Source: Mucisphaera calidilacus (GTDB lineage Bacteria; Planctomycetota; Phycisphaerae; Phycisphaerales; Phycisphaeraceae). Taken from it: a stretch of 32,000 nucleotides of DNA. Below, in pieces: positions 9,503 to 29,032 of the stretch. Numbering within the stretch: position 1 is the first letter of the stretch; each line of letters starts with the position of its first letter. The stretch covers positions 2,580,001-2,612,000 of the forward strand of contig NZ_CP036280.1 in the NCBI RefSeq assembly GCF_007748075.1, read 5' to 3'. The notes below the pieces were generated by a model, which did not search any database, was not told where the DNA came from, and saw only the letters and a list, made by a program, of their open reading frames with translations. A program made the position numbers and the translations under genes.

Positions 9503-10654
9503 ATGGACGCACACCCGAGCCATTTCGCCCAGATTTACAGCGTGTACGCGCATGTTCCGTTCTGCTTTCATAAGTGTCACTACTGCGACTTCTACAGCCT
9601 GGCGGAGCCGCGTGGGGACGCCAGTCGTCATCAGCCCTTTGCACGAGCGTTGTTGGGGGAGCTTGGAGCCCTTTCCGAGTCTTATCGGCTGGAACCGACG
9701 ACGGTATTCGTCGGTGGCGGCACGCCGACGCTGATGGGTGCCGATGTCTGGTCGTCTCTGCTGTACGACCTGCAGAGTCTGCTGGATCGTTCGAAGCTGC
9801 AGGAATTTACGGTGGAGGCGAATCCGGAGACGGTTACAGAAGACCTGGCGTCGGTATTGGTGGATGGGGGTGTGGATCGGTTTTCCCTGGGTGCCCAGTC
9901 GTTTCAGCCGGACCTTCTGAAGGCACTGGAGCGGTGGCATGATCCGGCGAGTGTGGGTCGGTCGGTGGGCATTTTGCGCAAAGCGGGGGTGAGTCGGCTG
10001 AACCTGGACATGATTTTCGCGATCCCGGGCCAGACGCTTGAGGATCTGGATCGCGATCTGGAGGCGGTGCTGGCGTTGGAGCCGGATCACGTGTCGTGTT
10101 ACGGGCTGACGTACGAGCCGAACACGCCTCTGACGACAAAGCTGCGTCTGGGTCGGGTGGATCGGGCGGACGAGGAGCTGGAGCGGGCGATGTACGAGCG
10201 GGTGATGGAGCGTCTGGGCGCGGCGGGGTTCGAGCATTACGAGATCAGCAACTGGGCTCGGCCGGGGCAGCGTTGCCTGCACAACATGGCGTACTGGGAG
10301 AACCGGGACTGGCTGGGGGTGGGGCCGTCGGCGGCGAGTCACGTGGGGGGTCGGCGTTGGAAGAACGAGGCGCACCTGGGGCGGTATCTGGAGGGGTGTC
10401 CGGAGCCGCCTGTGGTGGACGTTGAGGAGCTGAATGCGGCGCAGCGGCGTGGGGAGCAGCTGATGCTTAGGCTGCGTCTGATCGAGGGCGCCCCCCTGCC
10501 GTGGCTGGATGCGTTGCTTCCCGACGGTGACTGGCGCTGGGGTGAGATCAAGATGCTGATCTCGATGGGCCTGCTGGAGCGGACGGGGACGCATGTTCGG
10601 CTGACGCGTGCGGGGTTGTTTGTGGGTGACGATGTGGTGGCGAGGTTGCTGTGA
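9503..10654 (+). CDS. hemW: Radical SAM heme chaperone HemW (oxygen-independent coproporphyrinogen-III oxidase-like)
   Basis: It has YAHVPFCFHKCHYCDF (the CxxxCxxC radical-SAM cluster with the HemW-type context), GGGTPT, FSLGAQSF, and a C-terminal HemN_C-like region. The length is 383 aa. Confidence 0.9.
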   Translation: MDAHPSHFAQIYSVYAHVPFCFHKCHYCDFYSLAEPRGDASRHQPFARALLGELGALSESYRLEPTTVFVGGGTPTLMGADVWSSLLYDLQSLLDRSKLQEFTVEANPETVTEDLASVLVDGGVDRFSLGAQSFQPDLLKALERWHDPASVGRSVGILRKAGVSRLNLDMIFAIPGQTLEDLDRDLEAVLALEPDHVSCYGLTYEPNTPLTTKLRLGRVDRADEELERAMYERVMERLGAAGFEHYEISNWARPGQRCLHNMAYWENRDWLGVGPSAASHVGGRRWKNEAHLGRYLEGCPEPPVVDVEELNAAQRRGEQLMLRLRLIEGAPLPWLDALLPDGDWRWGEIKMLISMGLLERTGTHVRLTRAGLFVGDDVVARLL

Positions 10655-22168: not shown

Positions 22169-22702
22169 TTACGGGTCGGGTGCGTAGACGGCTCCGACGC
22201 CGATGGCGCGGAGCAGTCTGTCTTCTTCGGTGTGCATGATCTGTGCCTGCTCGGGGTCGTGGTCGTCGTAGCCGAGGAGGTGGAGCAGCCCGTGGACGGC
22301 GTAGAGGAGCAGTTCGCGTTCGACGCCATGGCCGCAGCTGTCGGCTTCGCGGGTTGCCTCGTCGACGCAGATGACCAGTTCGCCGTCGATCGGGCCTTCT
22401 TCGGTCTCGCGGAGGTCGAAGGTCATGACGTCGGTGGTGGTGGGGTCGTCGAGGTATTTGCCGTGGAGTTGTGCCATGGCCTCGTCGCCGACGAAGACGA
22501 CGCTGAGCGATTCGAGGGGTTGGTCGAGGAGTTGGAGCAGGGTGATGAGGTGCTGGTGGACCCAGTCGGCGTGGGTTCTGCCGAGCTCGTGCTCGGCCGA
22601 GACGGACAGACGGTCACGGACCCCCGGTTGCTCGGGTTGAGACGGGTCGGGGTCGTCGTCGCTGGGCAGCGGCGTGTCGGGAGTGAGGTCGGCCTGATGC
22701 AT
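22169..22702 (-). CDS. ybeY: rRNA maturation endoribonuclease YbeY
   Basis: It carries the AVHGLLHLLGYDDHD zinc-binding H..LH....H motif. The Asp/Pro-rich N-terminal extension suggests the true start may lie further downstream. Confidence 0.9.
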   Translation of the reverse strand: MHQADLTPDTPLPSDDDPDPSQPEQPGVRDRLSVSAEHELGRTHADWVHQHLITLLQLLDQPLESLSVVFVGDEAMAQLHGKYLDDPTTTDVMTFDLRETEEGPIDGELVICVDEATREADSCGHGVERELLLYAVHGLLHLLGYDDHDPEQAQIMHTEEDRLLRAIGVGAVYAPDP

Positions 22703-22765
22703 GGTTCTTATTGTATCGGCTTGGCGGAGGGGTCAAAACGGCGTTCGCCGGGGCATGAATGGCGA

Positions 22766-23197
22766 TCAGTCGTTTTTGTGTTCTCGGGCTCGTGTCATGG
22801 TGACGCAGTTGCCGGCGTCGTTGTAGGACACGGAGGTCATGTAGGCGGCCATGAGCATGACGCCGCGTCCGCAGGGCCGGACGAGGTTTTCTTCGAGTGT
22901 GGGATCGGGGACGTCGTGGGGGTTGAAGCCCTGTCCCTGGTCGCAGACGGTGATCTCGATCCGGTGTTCGTCGATGGTGTAGCGGATGGTGACGCGTAGC
23001 CTGGGGTCGCGTTTGTTGCCGTGCCGGATGGCGTTGGTGATGGATTCGTCGAGGCAGAGTTTGATGGCGAAGATGGCGTCGTCGGGGTAGCCGTGCTGCT
23101 GAGCGGCCTGGACGATGTGCTCCTGAACCGGTGCCACTTCCTCCAGGTCGCTGGGGATGGTCAGTGTTTCAGAGGTGGGCTTGCGTGATTCGCCCAT
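22766..23197 (-). CDS. Anti-sigma regulatory factor, Ser/Thr protein kinase (RsbW/SpoIIAB-like HATPase)
   Basis: It has the N-box ESITNAIRHGN and the G-box CGRGVMLMAAY. The length is 143 aa. A GGAG Shine-Dalgarno lies upstream, and it starts 30 nt after the STAS gene. Confidence 0.8.
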   Translation of the reverse strand: MGESRKPTSETLTIPSDLEEVAPVQEHIVQAAQQHGYPDDAIFAIKLCLDESITNAIRHGNKRDPRLRVTIRYTIDEHRIEITVCDQGQGFNPHDVPDPTLEENLVRPCGRGVMLMAAYMTSVSYNDAGNCVTMTRAREHKND

Positions 23198-23227
23198 CGC
23201 AGCTCGTCTCCACCCGACGGGGGATCA

Positions 23228-23587
23228 CTACTTGAAGCTCTCGATGGCCTTGGCGGTGGTGTCGTGGATCTGAAAGAGCTTGTTGAGCTTGGTGATCACG
23301 AACACCTCGTAGATCTGCGGGTCGATGTTGGCCAGTCGCAGCTGCCCGGCCTTCTGTCGGATCTTGTTGTTGATGGTGATGAGTGTTCCGAGCGCGGCGG
23401 AGGAGAGATGCTCGACGCGTTCGAAGCTGATGAGGATTTTAGGGTTGGTCGCCTTCTCGATCAGCGTGGAGATTTCCTCGCCAATCTGCTGGATGTTGGC
23501 TTCCTCCAGGATGTTCCGATCGAGGAACTCAACTTTGGTGATGTCGTCCTGCTCGTGGATGACGAGTCTGGAATCCTTGGTAGTCAT
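23228..23587 (-). CDS. Anti-sigma factor antagonist (STAS domain, RsbV/SpoIIAA-like)
   Basis: It has ...ISFERVEHLSSAALGTLI... with the conserved phosphorylatable Ser context, and ...LANIDPQIYEVFVITKL. The start is set at ATG 23587 because a strong AGGAG lies 6 nt upstream. The track ORF extends to 23644. Confidence 0.85.
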   Translation of the reverse strand: MTTKDSRLVIHEQDDITKVEFLDRNILEEANIQQIGEEISTLIEKATNPKILISFERVEHLSSAALGTLITINNKIRQKAGQLRLANIDPQIYEVFVITKLNKLFQIHDTTAKAIESFK

Positions 23588-23748
23588 CAACCGCTCCTGG
23601 GGCTTCGTGAGCCGGACCGTAGCCAAGCTGCCGAAGGGTGTCAAGAAAAAGACAGGTGGACCTTGTGCACTATAAGATCTCTGCCCGCGTTGCGTCCATG
23701 TCGTACACTATAGGGATATCGAGGCCACCTACGTCGCGGCGACCGAAC

Positions 23749-24585: not shown

Positions 24586-25773
24586 ATGTCTCAAGCGCTG
24601 GCGCTAGACGCGTTGATTCTCGGCGGGGGTGTTGCGGGCCTGTGGACGCTTGACGAGTTACGGCGGCGGGGTTTCTCGGCGGTTCTGCTGGAGTCGGACC
24701 GGCTCGGGCGCGGCCAGACGGTTTCGGCGCAGGGGATTCTGCACGGCGGGATCAAGTACACGCTCTCGGGGATGATGACGGACTCGGCGCGGGCGCACCG
24801 CGACGCGCCGGCGGTGTGGCATCGCGCGCTGCGTGGCGAGGCATTGCCTGACCTGACGCGGACGCGTGTGCTGGCCGAGTCGTGCTATCTGTGGCGGACG
24901 GGCTCGCTCTCTTCGATCGCGGGCATGGTGGGTGCGCGAGCGGGGCTGGCGACCAAGCCGGAGCGGCTGGAAGCGGGCGAGCTGCCCGAGGTGTTGAACC
25001 GGTGCCCGGGTGAGGTGTTCCGCGTCAACGAGTGGATCATTGATCCGGTGTCGCTGGTGCGTGATTTCGCCCGGCAGCACGAGGACGCGATCCTCAAGGC
25101 CGAGCATCCGGTGTTTCGTCGCGAGGGTGAGAACGTGGTGGAGGTCGAGGCGGGGCCGGTTCGGCTTTCGCCTCGGGTGGTGATCCTGACGGCGGGGGCC
25201 GGGACGCAGGGGTTGCGTGATCAACTGGGTCTTGCGGGTGGTTCGACACAGAAGCGGCCGCTGCACATGGTGATGATGCGCGGGGACCTGCCTGAGTTGC
25301 ACGGTCACTGCGTGGATGGCGCGCACACGCGTGCGACGATCACAAGCGGCACGCATAGCGAGGGCCAGCGTGTCTGGCAGGTTGGCGGCCAGGTGTCGGA
25401 GGATGGCGTGAAGATGGAGGCCGGGGCGCTGATCGAGCACGCGAAGCGTGAGGTCGAGGCGGTGCTGCCTGGGATCGATCTGAACGGTGTGTCGTGGGCG
25501 AGTTACCGCGTGGACCGGGCGGAGTCGGCGACGCGGATGGGGCTGAAGCCGGACTCGGCGACGCTGCGGCGTGAGGGAAACGTGCTGACGGCGTTCCCGA
25601 CGAAGTTGGTGCTCGCGCCCTACCTGGCGGCGCAGGTTGTTGAAGAACTGGGAGAGCCGCGTGGTGATGGGCGTGCGGAGCAGGCGGCGTTGACGGAGTC
25701 GGCGGCGGGCGTGGATCGGCCTGAGACGGCGTGTGCGCCGTGGGACGAGGACGTGTCATGGACGTCGCTGTGA
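24586..25773 (+). CDS. FAD-dependent oxidoreductase (GlpD/DAO-like)
   Basis: The dinucleotide-binding motif DALILGGGVAGLWTLDEL is followed by GRGQTVSAQGILHGGIKY, which resembles the GlpD SGTSSRSSKLIHGGLRY segment. The substrate is unknown. Confidence 0.75.
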   Translation: MSQALALDALILGGGVAGLWTLDELRRRGFSAVLLESDRLGRGQTVSAQGILHGGIKYTLSGMMTDSARAHRDAPAVWHRALRGEALPDLTRTRVLAESCYLWRTGSLSSIAGMVGARAGLATKPERLEAGELPEVLNRCPGEVFRVNEWIIDPVSLVRDFARQHEDAILKAEHPVFRREGENVVEVEAGPVRLSPRVVILTAGAGTQGLRDQLGLAGGSTQKRPLHMVMMRGDLPELHGHCVDGAHTRATITSGTHSEGQRVWQVGGQVSEDGVKMEAGALIEHAKREVEAVLPGIDLNGVSWASYRVDRAESATRMGLKPDSATLRREGNVLTAFPTKLVLAPYLAAQVVEELGEPRGDGRAEQAALTESAAGVDRPETACAPWDEDVSWTSL

Positions 25774-26552
25774 CGCAGCGGCCGTTGGGGCGCACGGGGA
25801 TGTCGATCTCCCCGATCGGTTTTGGTGCGTTCAAGATCGGGCGTAACACCGGGATCAAGTATGAGCGGGGTTATGAGCTGCCGAGCGATGAGCGGGCGGA
25901 GCACATCCTGCGGGGCGTGCTCGATAGTGGGATCAATCACGTCGATACCGCGCCGGCGTACGGGATCAGCGAGCAGCGCATCGGTGCGGCGATCGCGGAT
26001 CGGCGCGACGCGTACATCCTCTCGACCAAGGTGGGTGAGACGTTTGAGGGGGGGACGTCGACGTATGACTTTTCGCCTGAGGCGGTGACGGCGTCGGTGC
26101 ACCGGAGTCTCAAGCGGCTAAGCACCGATCGGATTGATGTCGTGCTGATCCACGCGAACCATGATGACCTTGGCATCATGCGTGATTCGGGTGCGCCTGA
26201 GGCACTGGATCGGCTCAAGGCGTCGGGCGAGGTGCGTGCGGTGGGCCTGTCGGGCAAGACGCCGGCGGGGTTTGAGGCGGCATTGGGCTGGGCGGACGTG
26301 TTCATGGTGGAGTATCACGCCGAGCAGCGGGAGATGGCGGATTTGATCACGCGTGCGCACGAGCGGGGCGTGGGGGTGCTGATCAAGAAGGGGCTGGCGT
26401 CGGGGACGCTTTCGGCAGATGAAGCGATTCGGTTTGTGCTGGGTCATGAGGGCGTGGATTCGTTGACGCTGGGGTCGCTCAATCTGGATCATCTGCGTGA
26501 GAATCTGGCGAGCGCGATGGCGTGTCGCGGTGTCAACCCGGGCAGGGGCTGA
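25758..26552 (+). CDS. Aldo/keto reductase
   Basis: It has LGRTGMSISPIGFGAFKIG, GINHVDTAPAYG, and IDVVLIH...D. The start is set at ATG 25758 (MDVAVTQRPLG), which overlaps the upstream gene by 16 nt. The track ORF begins at 25731. Confidence 0.85.
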   Translation: MDVAVTQRPLGRTGMSISPIGFGAFKIGRNTGIKYERGYELPSDERAEHILRGVLDSGINHVDTAPAYGISEQRIGAAIADRRDAYILSTKVGETFEGGTSTYDFSPEAVTASVHRSLKRLSTDRIDVVLIHANHDDLGIMRDSGAPEALDRLKASGEVRAVGLSGKTPAGFEAALGWADVFMVEYHAEQREMADLITRAHERGVGVLIKKGLASGTLSADEAIRFVLGHEGVDSLTLGSLNLDHLRENLASAMACRGVNPGRG

Positions 26553-26573
26553 GGATTATCGGCAACGGGGTAA

Positions 26574-26601
26574 CCCCGGTGCGCGAGTTTCTCGGGGTTT
26601 T
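26574..26601 (+). terminator. Candidate intrinsic terminator downstream of the aldo/keto reductase gene
   Basis: CCCCG (26574-78) pairs with CGGGG (26593-97) and is followed by TTTT (26598-26601). A competing hairpin, CGGGG-TAA-CCCCG, lies at 26566-78. The stem is short and its interior imperfect. Confidence 0.3.
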
Positions 26602-26639
26602 GCTCGGCGGCGGGGTGGTGCGGGGTATAATGCACGCGA

Positions 26640-26860
26640 CAAGTGAAGAGCCTCACAGGATTGCTGGGGTCGATCCCCCTTCAGATCCATACGCCTCGAA
26701 CCCTTATGAACCTCAACGGGAGCGGGTATCGGGCACGACGGTCAAGCCCCCTCTGAGGGGACGGCCCGGATGACCCGGCGAAGCGCCCACCTACATGTTG
26801 GGGTTCGAGCAACTGGATCTGACGACCCCCGCATTCCCGTGAGGCTTGATCACAACGGCG
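26640..26860 (+). ncRNA. Candidate structured RNA with 6S-RNA-like rod architecture (ends and strand are tentative)
   Basis: Collinear complementary blocks are 26643-46/26850-53, 26649-56/26839-46, 26658-60/26835-37, 26662-64/26831-33, 26666-72/26823-29, 26681-89/26814-22 and 26695-703/26801-09. They are followed by a 14x12-nt open loop and a nested terminal arm with its apex at 26753-55. A perfect TATAAT at 26626-31 favours the + strand. The G>C skew disappears locally. I cannot run a covariance model here. Confidence 0.45.
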
Positions 26861-26864
26861 CACG

Positions 26865-26894
26865 AAAAAGGCGACGCGCCTCAGGCCCGTCGCC
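26865..26894 (-). terminator. Rho-independent terminator of the MRJP-like gene
   Basis: On the - strand it reads GGCGACG-(11 nt loop)-CGTCGCC followed by TTTTT. It begins 30 nt after the stop at 26925. Confidence 0.7.
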
Positions 26895-26924
26895 TTGTTG
26901 CTATTGGGTTTGATCGTGTGGTGG

Positions 26925-28898
26925 TCAGTCGGTGGGGACCGATGCGGTGCCGGTCTGCTGGATGACGCCTGGGGTTTCTGCGAACTCGGCGGCGACGGCC
27001 TGCTGGGTGGCCTGCTCGGCGATCCGTCGTGCGACCTCAGCGGCGGCCTGAGCCGAGTAGAGGTCTTCGTTGACGGCGTCGGCGGTCTGATCGGCCTTCT
27101 TCGCGGCGGCCCAGGTCTGGAGGGCCTGGAGTCCGGTTGCGGCGAGGGCACGCTCGGCGAGCCCCAGCTGGCGTTCGGATTCCTGGAAGACGAGTTCGGC
27201 TTCCTTGAGGGCGACCTGTGCAGCACGGACCTCGGCCTCGGCGAGTTCGACGTCGACCTGTGCCGCGAGAGCGCGGTCGCGGAGGACCAGGGCCTCTTCG
27301 GCACGGGCACGGGCCAGACGCATGAGGCGTTCGGCGACGTCGGTGGCTTCGCGTGCCGATGTGGCGCGGAGCTCGGCCTCACGGACCTTGAAGCGGGCCT
27401 GTTCGGCGGCGCGACGCTCGTGTCGGGCGACGGTGGCGACGGACTGGGAGGCCTGGCTGCGGAGAGCGTGTGCCTCGTAGACGGCCTCGGCCTGGACCTC
27501 GACCTTGCGGGCGGCCTGCTCGGCGACCTGTCGCTGGGTGTCGGCGGCGCGTCGTGCCAGTTCGGCCTCGCGACGCTTGCGTTCGGCGGAGGCGCGGGCC
27601 TCGGCGGCGCGTTCGCGTGCTTCTTCGGCTCGGATGGCGGCCTTGACGGCCTGCTGCACCTTCTCGACCGAGACACGCATCAGGGCGTAAGGCTCGTGCC
27701 TTGTGGCCTGCGTGCTGTAGGGCGAGGAGAGGTGACGCATGGAGGTCGTGAAGTAGAGGTAGCCGTCGGCGGCGATGGTCAGGGAGTCGGGCCAGCGGAG
27801 TTCGGGGCCGGCGACGACGGTTTCGACCTGTCCGTGGGGCTCGCGGACGATGATGGCGTGGTTCTCGAGGCCGGCGGCGTAGAGGCGTTCATCGGTGTCG
27901 AACCAGAGTCCGTCGACGGCGGTGCCGAGGTTGCCGAGGGTCTCGACCTGGAGCTTGACTTCCTGGTCGCCGAGTTCGGTGTTGAGCAGCGCGGCGGTGG
28001 GCACGCGGTAGAGTTCGCGTGAGCCAAGGGGCTGGTAGTAGAGCCATTCGCGGTCGTTGGAGAGTTCGAGGCCCCAGACGCCCAGTCGGCCTGCGCCGGC
28101 GGCGCGGGTGGCGTCGGCGGTGAACTCGGTGCCGGGCACGGGGGCGGTCGACGGGTCGCCGACGAGTCGGCTGGCGGCCCAGCGGCGGCTGAGGTCATAG
28201 ACGACGATCGCGCCGGATCCGGCGTCGGCGAGGTAGGCGACGCGCTTCTCGATGTCGACGCGGAAGTCACTGAGGAAGCTGGTCGGGCCGAGTTGACGCT
28301 TGTGGTCGAGGTAGAAAACCTGGGCGATGCTGTTGTCGGTCAGGTCGATGCGGACGAGTTTGGGTCCGGCGGTAACGATGCCGTCACCGGCCTGCGGGTT
28401 GCCCGAGTCGAGGACCCAGAGGTAGTCGAGGTCGTCGATGGCGATCGCCTCGGCGGAGACGAGCGTGTGCAACGCGGAGGGTCCGGGCTGGCCGTCCCAG
28501 CAGTTCCAGCCCACGGTGGGGTAGGGACGCGTGGTGCCGTCGGGGAAGACCTCGGCGAGCCCGAGTTCGGGCTTTGCGCTCCAGTAGGGGAAGCTGACGA
28601 AGACGCGGCCGCTTTCGGAGACGGCCACGCCGGAGGGCTGGGCGTCCTTGAAGCTGGCGACCTTGACTACGAGCTTGTCGAAGTGCCGTGCGATCTCGCT
28701 CCTGGCGCTGGCCTCGGGCGAGGCGGTCGCGGGCACCGGCTTGGTGGCGCTCTGGCTGATGGTTTTGGAGCTGCCCAGCGACATCTCGTCGGTCTGCTGA
28801 GACTCGGTTGCGGAACATCCCCCCAGCACCAGTCCTGCGGCCAGAAGGCCTGCCGTCACCGTGCCACGCCAAACGCGATCAAACTTCCAACTCGTCAT
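26925..28898 (-). CDS. Lipoprotein with an MRJP/yellow-family beta-propeller domain and a long C-terminal coiled coil
   Basis: The lipobox is LVLGGC. The propeller motifs are RVFVSFPYW, DYLWVLDSGNP, GPKLVRIDL, VAYLADAGSGAIVVYDL, GVWGLELS..REWLYYQPLGSRELYRVPTAALLN and YLYFTTS, which parallel the major royal jelly/yellow family signature. The last 250 aa or so are Ala/Arg/Glu-rich heptad-like sequence. The start is set at ATG 28898 (MTSWKF); the track ORF starts at TTG 28946. Confidence 0.75.
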   Translation of the reverse strand: MTSWKFDRVWRGTVTAGLLAAGLVLGGCSATESQQTDEMSLGSSKTISQSATKPVPATASPEASARSEIARHFDKLVVKVASFKDAQPSGVAVSESGRVFVSFPYWSAKPELGLAEVFPDGTTRPYPTVGWNCWDGQPGPSALHTLVSAEAIAIDDLDYLWVLDSGNPQAGDGIVTAGPKLVRIDLTDNSIAQVFYLDHKRQLGPTSFLSDFRVDIEKRVAYLADAGSGAIVVYDLSRRWAASRLVGDPSTAPVPGTEFTADATRAAGAGRLGVWGLELSNDREWLYYQPLGSRELYRVPTAALLNTELGDQEVKLQVETLGNLGTAVDGLWFDTDERLYAAGLENHAIIVREPHGQVETVVAGPELRWPDSLTIAADGYLYFTTSMRHLSSPYSTQATRHEPYALMRVSVEKVQQAVKAAIRAEEARERAAEARASAERKRREAELARRAADTQRQVAEQAARKVEVQAEAVYEAHALRSQASQSVATVARHERRAAEQARFKVREAELRATSAREATDVAERLMRLARARAEEALVLRDRALAAQVDVELAEAEVRAAQVALKEAELVFQESERQLGLAERALAATGLQALQTWAAAKKADQTADAVNEDLYSAQAAAEVARRIAEQATQQAVAAEFAETPGVIQQTGTASVPTD

Positions 28899-29032
28899 GA
28901 TGGACTCACCTTCATCCCATAAGGCCGCCGAACAGAGGCGTGCCAAGGTGCGGACTCTGGCGGCATCGGGTGCCCGGGCGTCGGGATTAAGCCCGGGTGG
29001 GTGACTATCGGACAGGAATCGCCGATGTGCGT

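Follow-up and report, generated by a model that had tools for sequence, protein, structure and literature searches.

A candidate divergent 6S-type RNA gene in Mucisphaera calidilacus and related Phycisphaerae

In a 32,000-nt stretch of DNA (the window) from the planctomycete Mucisphaera calidilacus (class Phycisphaerae, phylum Planctomycetota), we found that the plus strand at 26639-26854 carries a gene for a conserved, structured RNA, which is probably a divergent 6S-type RNA of this species and related Phycisphaerae. 6S RNA is a global transcription regulator that sequesters bacterial RNA polymerase, and where covariance models fail, gaps remain in the range of organisms known to have it. 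A preliminary description of this DNA had proposed a 6S-like RNA at this place, and the proposal is supported by a conserved and covarying fold, by full-length matches to the Rfam 6S model RF00013, and by a conserved alternative helix of the kind that collapses the central bubble.

The RNA lies in a 372-nt gap between the stop codon of an aldo/keto reductase gene (AKR; 26552, plus strand) and that of a convergent MRJP-like gene (26925, minus strand), with the AKR gene and a gene for an FAD oxidoreductase (DAO) immediately upstream. As noted earlier, this is the widest true gap in the window, judged from a rough gene map in which one ORF-filter artefact was set aside. The features of the gap and of the RNA within it are as follows.

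26562-26582: short hairpin GCAACGGGGT/ACCCCGGTGC, 10 nt past the AKR stop codon and followed by T-rich sequence
26622-26632, plus strand: predicted promoter -10 region GGGGTATAATG, with TATAAT at 26626-31
26639-26854, plus strand: conserved RNA core of about 216 nt, defined by the family covariance model R1, the RF00013 match and the fold
26639-26647, plus strand: single-stranded 5' tail ACAAGUGAA, conserved in sequence
26648-26672, plus strand: closing stem, 5' strand, pairing with 26823-26847 in 22 pairs
26673-26680, plus strand: 8-nt bulge on the 5' side, unpaired in the minimum free energy (MFE) and consensus structures
26681-26689, plus strand: helix P2, 5' strand, pairing with 26814-26822 in a perfect 9 bp in the window
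26693-26704, plus strand: helix P3 beside the bubble, 5' strand, pairing with 26800-26810 in 11 pairs
26705-26717, plus strand: central bubble, 5' strand UAUGAACCUCAAC, unpaired in the consensus
26718-26788, plus strand: terminal arm, nearly invariant in sequence, with helices 7-9 fully paired in seven sequences
26718-20 with 26786-88, plus strand: helix P4 of the terminal arm
26729-35 with 26771-78, plus strand: helix P5 of the terminal arm
26740-43 with 26763-66, plus strand: helix P6 of the terminal arm
26747-50 with 26757-60, plus strand: helix P7 of the terminal arm
26751-56, plus strand: apex loop of the terminal arm
26789-26799, plus strand: central bubble, 3' strand ACCUACAUGUU, unpaired and variable in sequence apart from CCCACCU
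26800-10, 26814-22 and 26823-47, plus strand: 3' strands of P3, P2 and the closing stem, partners of the 5' strands above
26868-26905, plus strand: predicted terminator, a hairpin at 26868-26896 and then a U-rich tail GUUGCUAUU

The hairpin just past the reductase stop codon is probably the AKR gene's own terminator, and as such it would separate the AKR gene from the RNA promoter. The mechanical ORF of AKR overlaps the DAO gene by 43 nt (25731-25773), and since the deposited AKR protein is 264 aa long, the real start is probably at 25758. Base composition changes at the RNA: the GC skew of the plus strand, which is +0.245 over the whole window and reaches +0.40 per kb, drops to -0.07 within the element, and the earlier count of 20 G versus 19 C in 26701-26760 proved exact. 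The skew is still positive (+0.15) over the gene at 26925-28946 on the minus strand, the single case examined, so it looks tied to replication and not to transcription direction.

The plus strand folds into a rod in which a closing stem leads through a central bubble of 13 x 11 nt to a terminal arm of 71 nt, the full stem region comprising 26648-26704 with 26800-26847; a rod of about 180-220 nt with closing stem, large bubble and terminal stem is the architecture of the 6S class. The MFE of the plus strand (26636-26860) was -107.2 kcal/mol (z = -5.96), a value reached by none of 200 shuffles, and that of the minus strand was -113.4 kcal/mol (z = -4.66). Every complementary block listed in the preliminary description was recovered in place, with 26649-72 pairing with 26823-46 (24 nt, 88% complementary) and 26681-89 with 26814-22 and 26695-703 with 26801-09 (9 of 9 in both), and the facing segments that it had called largely unpaired were likewise so, at 26705-17 and 26789-99. 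Comparison with orthologues revised two of its pairings. The outermost one, GTGA with TCAC (26643-46 with 26850-53), is not conserved, and 26639-47 is instead a conserved single-stranded 5' tail; the mid-arm pairing CGGGC/GCCCG is broken by a C-to-A change in locus L081, and the comparative data place UCGGGCA (26729-35) against UGACCCGG (26771-78).

Six further Phycisphaerae loci (L081, L082, L083, L097, L098 and L101) carry the same RNA in the equivalent syntenic place; there the flanking proteins are just 52-73% identical. In L081, L082 and L083 the AKR proteins are 64-68% identical and the genes follow the order LysM, DAO, AKR, then a gap of about 340-370 nt, with gene order and gap kept in L082 despite a different downstream gene. 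When the gaps of these close orthologues were aligned with that of the window, there was no conservation past the stop codon, and conservation set in sharply at GGTATAATGCA and ran for about 215 nt. The family model R1 scored 235 bits on the window RNA and 230-242 bits in L081-L083. Synteny of DAO led to a more distant group, L097 (strain D3-23), L098 (JB063, identical to L099) and L101, which has the same RNA one gene further downstream (R1, 96-103 bits), another gene standing between the RNA and the reductase gene. In these three the apex bears a hairpin extension of 30-40 nt, and the -10 box (GCGGGGTAGAATG) is 55-60 nt further upstream of the stem, so that the primary transcript would be either longer or processed. 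The extra leader is GC-rich and by eye self-complementary (L098 8793-8856; L097 8813-8878).

The RNA was absent from the DAO homologue loci L100, L102 and L103, and a reductase-gene scan of genome contigs found it in none of 80 loci whose reductases are 44-61% identical. Run on the related loci, R2, a core model of 142 positions, brought up no new members, and the family is thus far seen in two related clades only. Twelve metagenome matches to the pattern GGGTTCGAGCN{4,14}ACGACCCCCGC were rejected as chance, all of them lying inside unrelated sequence. Apart from this RNA, L098 has a separate hairpin of about 180 nt at 10168-10348, between the Hexapep and LON_substr_bdg genes and unrelated to the 6S-type RNA; on both strands it scored about 20 bits with R1, and 52 bits with a plant microRNA precursor model, which is below that model's threshold.

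The conserved gene block around the RNA runs CorC, YbeY, HATPase, STAS, then LysM, DAO, AKR and the RNA. A YbeY gene and a HATPase_c_2/STAS pair stand beside the RNA gene (window, about 22169-23644, minus strand; L081, 1249-2704; L082, 1266-2706), the Pfam assignments having been made in L081, L082, L097 and L098. The pair look like an anti-sigma kinase and its antagonist, and a link between them and a polymerase-binding RNA is speculation.

For covariation, the window and the six orthologous loci were fitted to R1 as a seven-sequence alignment. In it 96.0% of pair cells were paired, compared with 33-51% in shifted controls, and double compensatory changes occurred at 23 pairs; the covariation score was reached by 0 of 500 shuffles, and RNAalifold counted 24 compensatory pairs in the same alignment. 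An alignment of the four close orthologues that was independent of R1 (MAFFT and RNAalifold) gave 98.2% paired cells versus 32-51% in shifted controls, with double changes at 8 of 55 pairs. The changes fall in the closing stem, P2 and P3, and the sequence hardly varies in the terminal arm or the 5' bubble strand. Double compensatory changes affect 14 of the 22 closing-stem pairs, where 91-100% of cells are paired across the seven sequences. Within P2, double changes are seen in the seven-sequence alignment at 52/218 and 53/217, the two pairs of helix 4, and the pair 26686/26817 is U-A in the window and C-G in L081 and L082 (alignment A2). P3 is paired in 94.7% of cells and has a C-G to U-A change adjoining the bubble. 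The terminal arm has changes too: GU/AU/GC in one pair, CG/UG/UA in a second and CG/GC in another. It had been foreseen that an RNA would reveal itself by covariation in the aligned orthologous gaps, and these do hold a conserved element with many compensatory changes, a structure maintained by evolution as in the 6S class. Conservation together with paired compensatory changes rules against a MITE, a relic repeat or a coding region.

The gene appears to be independently transcribed. The TATAAT reported at 26626-31 is present, and the -10 box is conserved among the orthologues; TATAATGCA is invariant at this region across the four close orthologues, and the window has a single occurrence of the -10 motif. 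Upstream of it we saw no convincing -35 box. The 5' end of the RNA is predicted near 26639, 7-8 nt past the -10 box, where all four close orthologues read ACAAGT[G/C]AAGA. Over its first 9-11 nt (ACAAGUGAAGA) the RNA is the same at 26639-26647 in the window, from 5881 in L081, from 5877 in L082 and from 2125 in L083. We saw no conserved pairing partner for this 5' tail in the alignment of the four, and it could be a processing site, the initial transcribed sequence or a contact site.

At the other end, the centroid hairpin of the putative terminator has an energy of -20.5 kcal/mol. L081 and L083 have downstream hairpins of differing sequence (-25 and -26.6 kcal/mol) followed by U-runs, and in L082 a U-run comes directly after the closing stem. 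A simple terminator scanner did not flag the hairpin and tail at 26868-26905; an A-run precedes the hairpin, so the terminator could act in both directions. When the consensus structure is read on the plus strand, there are 3-6 G-U pairs versus 0-1 A-C pairs. We place the RNA on the plus strand because the promoter and terminator are there, because G-U pairs exceed A-C pairs, and because only this strand matches the Rfam 6S model. Evidence at the sequence level thus points to a gene that is transcribed independently, from a promoter of its own on this strand, as in the 6S class.

We compared the RNA with Rfam on both strands of the gap. RF00013 matched the window at 26658-26838 (plus strand) over model positions 1-187 with 23.5 bits (E = 0.0079 for a 461-nt search region, which at whole-genome scale would not be significant alone), and it matched L081, L082 and L083 full-length with 30.5, 19.4 and 20.0 bits, on the plus strand only. 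The RF00013 gathering threshold is 46.4 bits; these scores of 19-30 bits lie below it and so place the RNA outside RF00013 by Rfam's rule. Even so, no family but 6S has a full-length match in each of the four close orthologues, and the check that had been suggested earlier, a search of the gap with Rfam models, singled out 6S as the sole full-length family, on the plus strand and at sub-threshold scores. L097, L098 and L101 gave no 6S match at E <= 1. No family anywhere in the window reached its Rfam gathering score, and 6S-Flavo (RF01685) was not among the matches at E <= 10. Matches at E <= 10 to Xist, PyrR209 and terminator-like sRNAs were set aside as partial or chance. The RNA is the only 6S candidate in the 32-kb window, and we found no tRNA or tmRNA gene anywhere in it. 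The minus strand, although equally rod-like, had no 6S match, indicating that rod shape alone is insufficient to yield one.

The reciprocal search agreed with this result. On a 2.5-kb E. coli locus, the best match of R1 was ssrS, at 979-1171 compared with the annotated 984-1166; the match is weak (12.5 bits, E = 0.0011) and could be partly due to the shared rod shape. In the alignment of R1 with ssrS, the bubble-flanking (3' bubble) and apical motifs line up. The CCCACCU motif of the window RNA (26786-92) matches the Rfam 6S consensus letter for letter in the RF00013 alignment.

RNAalifold on the core alone paired 26707-16 (UGAACCUCAA) with 26798-807 (UUGGGGUUCG), forming a collapse-type helix that overlaps the 3' strand of P3 and is mutually exclusive with P3. 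In all seven sequences the far half of the 5' bubble strand has remained complementary to the 3' strand of P3, with 95.7% of cells paired versus 16-56% in shifted controls. The helix has a duplex energy of -14 to -17 kcal/mol (z = -3.1 to -5.0 relative to shuffled bubble strands). One pair covaries (C-G in three sequences, U-A in three and U-G in one), a level that shuffles do not separate from chance. The helix thus supplies the built-in rearrangement element of a 6S-class RNA, with weak support from covariation at its one pair. In the ground state of the window RNA, P3 dominates with 9.4 expected bp, compared with 0.08 for the collapse helix; for the window and its close relatives together the values are about 9.4 for P3 and 0.1 to 1.3 for the alternative. 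When the P3 5' strand was blocked, as a product RNA would do, the collapse helix appeared in the MFE structure of all seven sequences. Among the distant sequences the collapse helix matches or exceeds P3 in stability, with a near balance between the two, and in L101 it prevails in the predicted ensemble, so that an open bubble cannot be counted on there. A helix of this type, the central bubble collapse helix, has been described in the B. subtilis 6S-1 and Aquifex 6S RNAs, where it forms upon product RNA synthesis and aids release from the polymerase (PMC8876501); in E. coli 6S, release is driven by a 9-bp hairpin within the 3' bubble strand (PMC8876501).

By analogy with these systems, the RNA would be transcribed from its own GGGGTATAATG promoter and would end at the hairpin and U-tail at 26868-26905. 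With its open 13 x 11 nt bubble the rod would imitate an open promoter, and would thereby bind and sequester the housekeeping RNA polymerase holoenzyme. Once nucleotides became plentiful, the polymerase may copy the 5' bubble and P3 strand, from about 26705 to about 26690, into a product RNA (pRNA) starting at about 26704-06 and reading towards 26690; that the P3 5' strand would serve as the pRNA template we infer by reference to the E. coli and B. subtilis 6S RNAs. The pRNA would open P3 and displace its 3' strand, and the freed 26798-26807 could then pair with 26707-26716, collapsing the bubble and releasing the polymerase much as in B. subtilis 6S-1 and Aquifex 6S.

Other explanations may be proposed for an element of this shape. 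The preliminary description had itself raised a DNA-level inverted repeat, that is, a MITE, a mobile-element relic or a cruciform site devoid of RNA function, and it could be argued that most pairs are Watson-Crick, that the minus strand folds about equally well (-113 kcal/mol) and that the element lies between the copies of a weak 24-nt direct repeat (71% identity). This reading is extremely unlikely: the single-copy comparison suggested earlier found the element once in the window and, over about 730 kb of related loci, nowhere but at the syntenic position; 23 pairs are altered on both sides yet still paired; conservation is lowest at the stem ends, the expected place of terminal repeats; the orthologues do not keep the flanking direct repeat; and a conserved promoter and terminator are found on one strand only. 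The window and the related loci hold neither the multiple copies, the conserved terminal repeats nor the target-site duplications of a MITE. Equally, the structure might act in cis, as a 3' UTR or terminator belonging to one of the neighbours, the reductase gene or the convergent MRJP-like gene, as its position between two convergent genes and a hairpin (26868-96) able to terminate in both directions might suggest. We consider this very unlikely, however, since the reductase gene has a hairpin of its own just past the stop (26562-82), conservation begins at the -10 box and not at the stop codon, and the RNA persists where the downstream gene is replaced (L082) or the reductase is separated from it (L097, L098 and L101). 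Two mechanical ORFs, one of 83 aa (26522-26773) and one of 47 aa (26770-26913), both on the plus strand, run into the region, but a small protein can be discounted almost entirely given the 1- and 2-nt indels within the conserved core, substitutions that are paired across the stems and lack a three-base period, and a GC skew and composition unlike those of the surrounding coding DNA.

A more serious alternative is that the RNA is a real, conserved and structured sRNA that resembles 6S in shape only and has another function, for example as a protein sponge or a two-state regulator. Scores below the 6S threshold, a distant group that lacks a 6S match, the near balance of two competing helices in that group, and a terminal arm and 5' tail conserved beyond the apparent need of a simple promoter mimic would all be compatible with such a function. 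On the other hand, a search at E <= 10 brought up no second Rfam family covering the whole RNA, 6S alone recurs full-length and on the correct strand in the four close orthologues, and the architecture, element sizes, shared motifs and collapse helix all fit 6S, so that we regard this reading as rather unlikely. In one form of it, which we hold to be improbable, a Phycisphaerae-restricted RNA would switch between P3 and the collapse-type helix in a non-sequestering function, its likeness to 6S being convergent or superficial.

A 6S-type RNA in this lineage would bear on the distribution of the family. No 6S RNA was found in Thermogutta, a member of the Planctomycetota (PMC5673643), and as cited there, a phylum-wide screen found none in Pirellula staleyi or Rhodopirellula baltica; the literature that we searched contained no description of a planctomycete 6S RNA. 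If validated, a 6S RNA in Phycisphaerae would fill part of this gap in distribution and give a seed alignment for the rest, and if the proposed mechanism is true, release by bubble collapse of the Bacillus/Aquifex type would be extended to a distant phylum. The analysis also marks, in a strain that has been cultured and sequenced (Pan265), an unannotated RNA gene with a predicted promoter and a predicted terminator.

Among known elements, MITEs and genomic inverted repeats likewise appear as mostly Watson-Crick inverted repeats of about 200 nt in an intergenic gap. Unlike them, the window RNA is single-copy and syntenic, has evolved by compensatory change, and has a promoter and terminator on one strand. 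A closer likeness is to E. coli SsrS and the RF00013 family, through the full-length, plus-strand model match in four orthologues and the reciprocal match of R1. The two share similar motifs, CCCACCU in the window RNA corresponding to UUCACCU in E. coli 6S, and CAAGCC-stem-GGGGAAGGCC to CAUGCUCGG-stem-CCGAGAAGCC, and we take the bubble and arm sizes of the window RNA to agree with those of E. coli 6S. They differ in that, with P3 blocked, the freed 3' strand of the window RNA pairs with the 5' bubble strand, whereas E. coli 6S forms a hairpin in the 3' bubble. Their surroundings differ as well: E. coli ssrS adjoins zapA and the 5-formyltetrahydrofolate cyclo-ligase gene, and the window RNA does not, with no ygfA-type neighbour beside it. 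6S-Flavo (RF01685) offers a parallel in a different lineage, being a lineage-specific 6S-like RNA that the general 6S model missed and that needed a model of its own. Close counterparts are also B. subtilis 6S-1 (BsrA) and Aquifex aeolicus 6S, which have the same rod of closing stem, central bubble and terminal arm and, compared by the definition in PMC8876501, the same complementarity between the far 5' bubble and the 3' strand of the adjacent helix; what sets the window RNA apart from these two is a sequence too diverged for the Rfam 6S threshold, its conserved 9-nt single-stranded 5' tail and its nearly invariant terminal arm.
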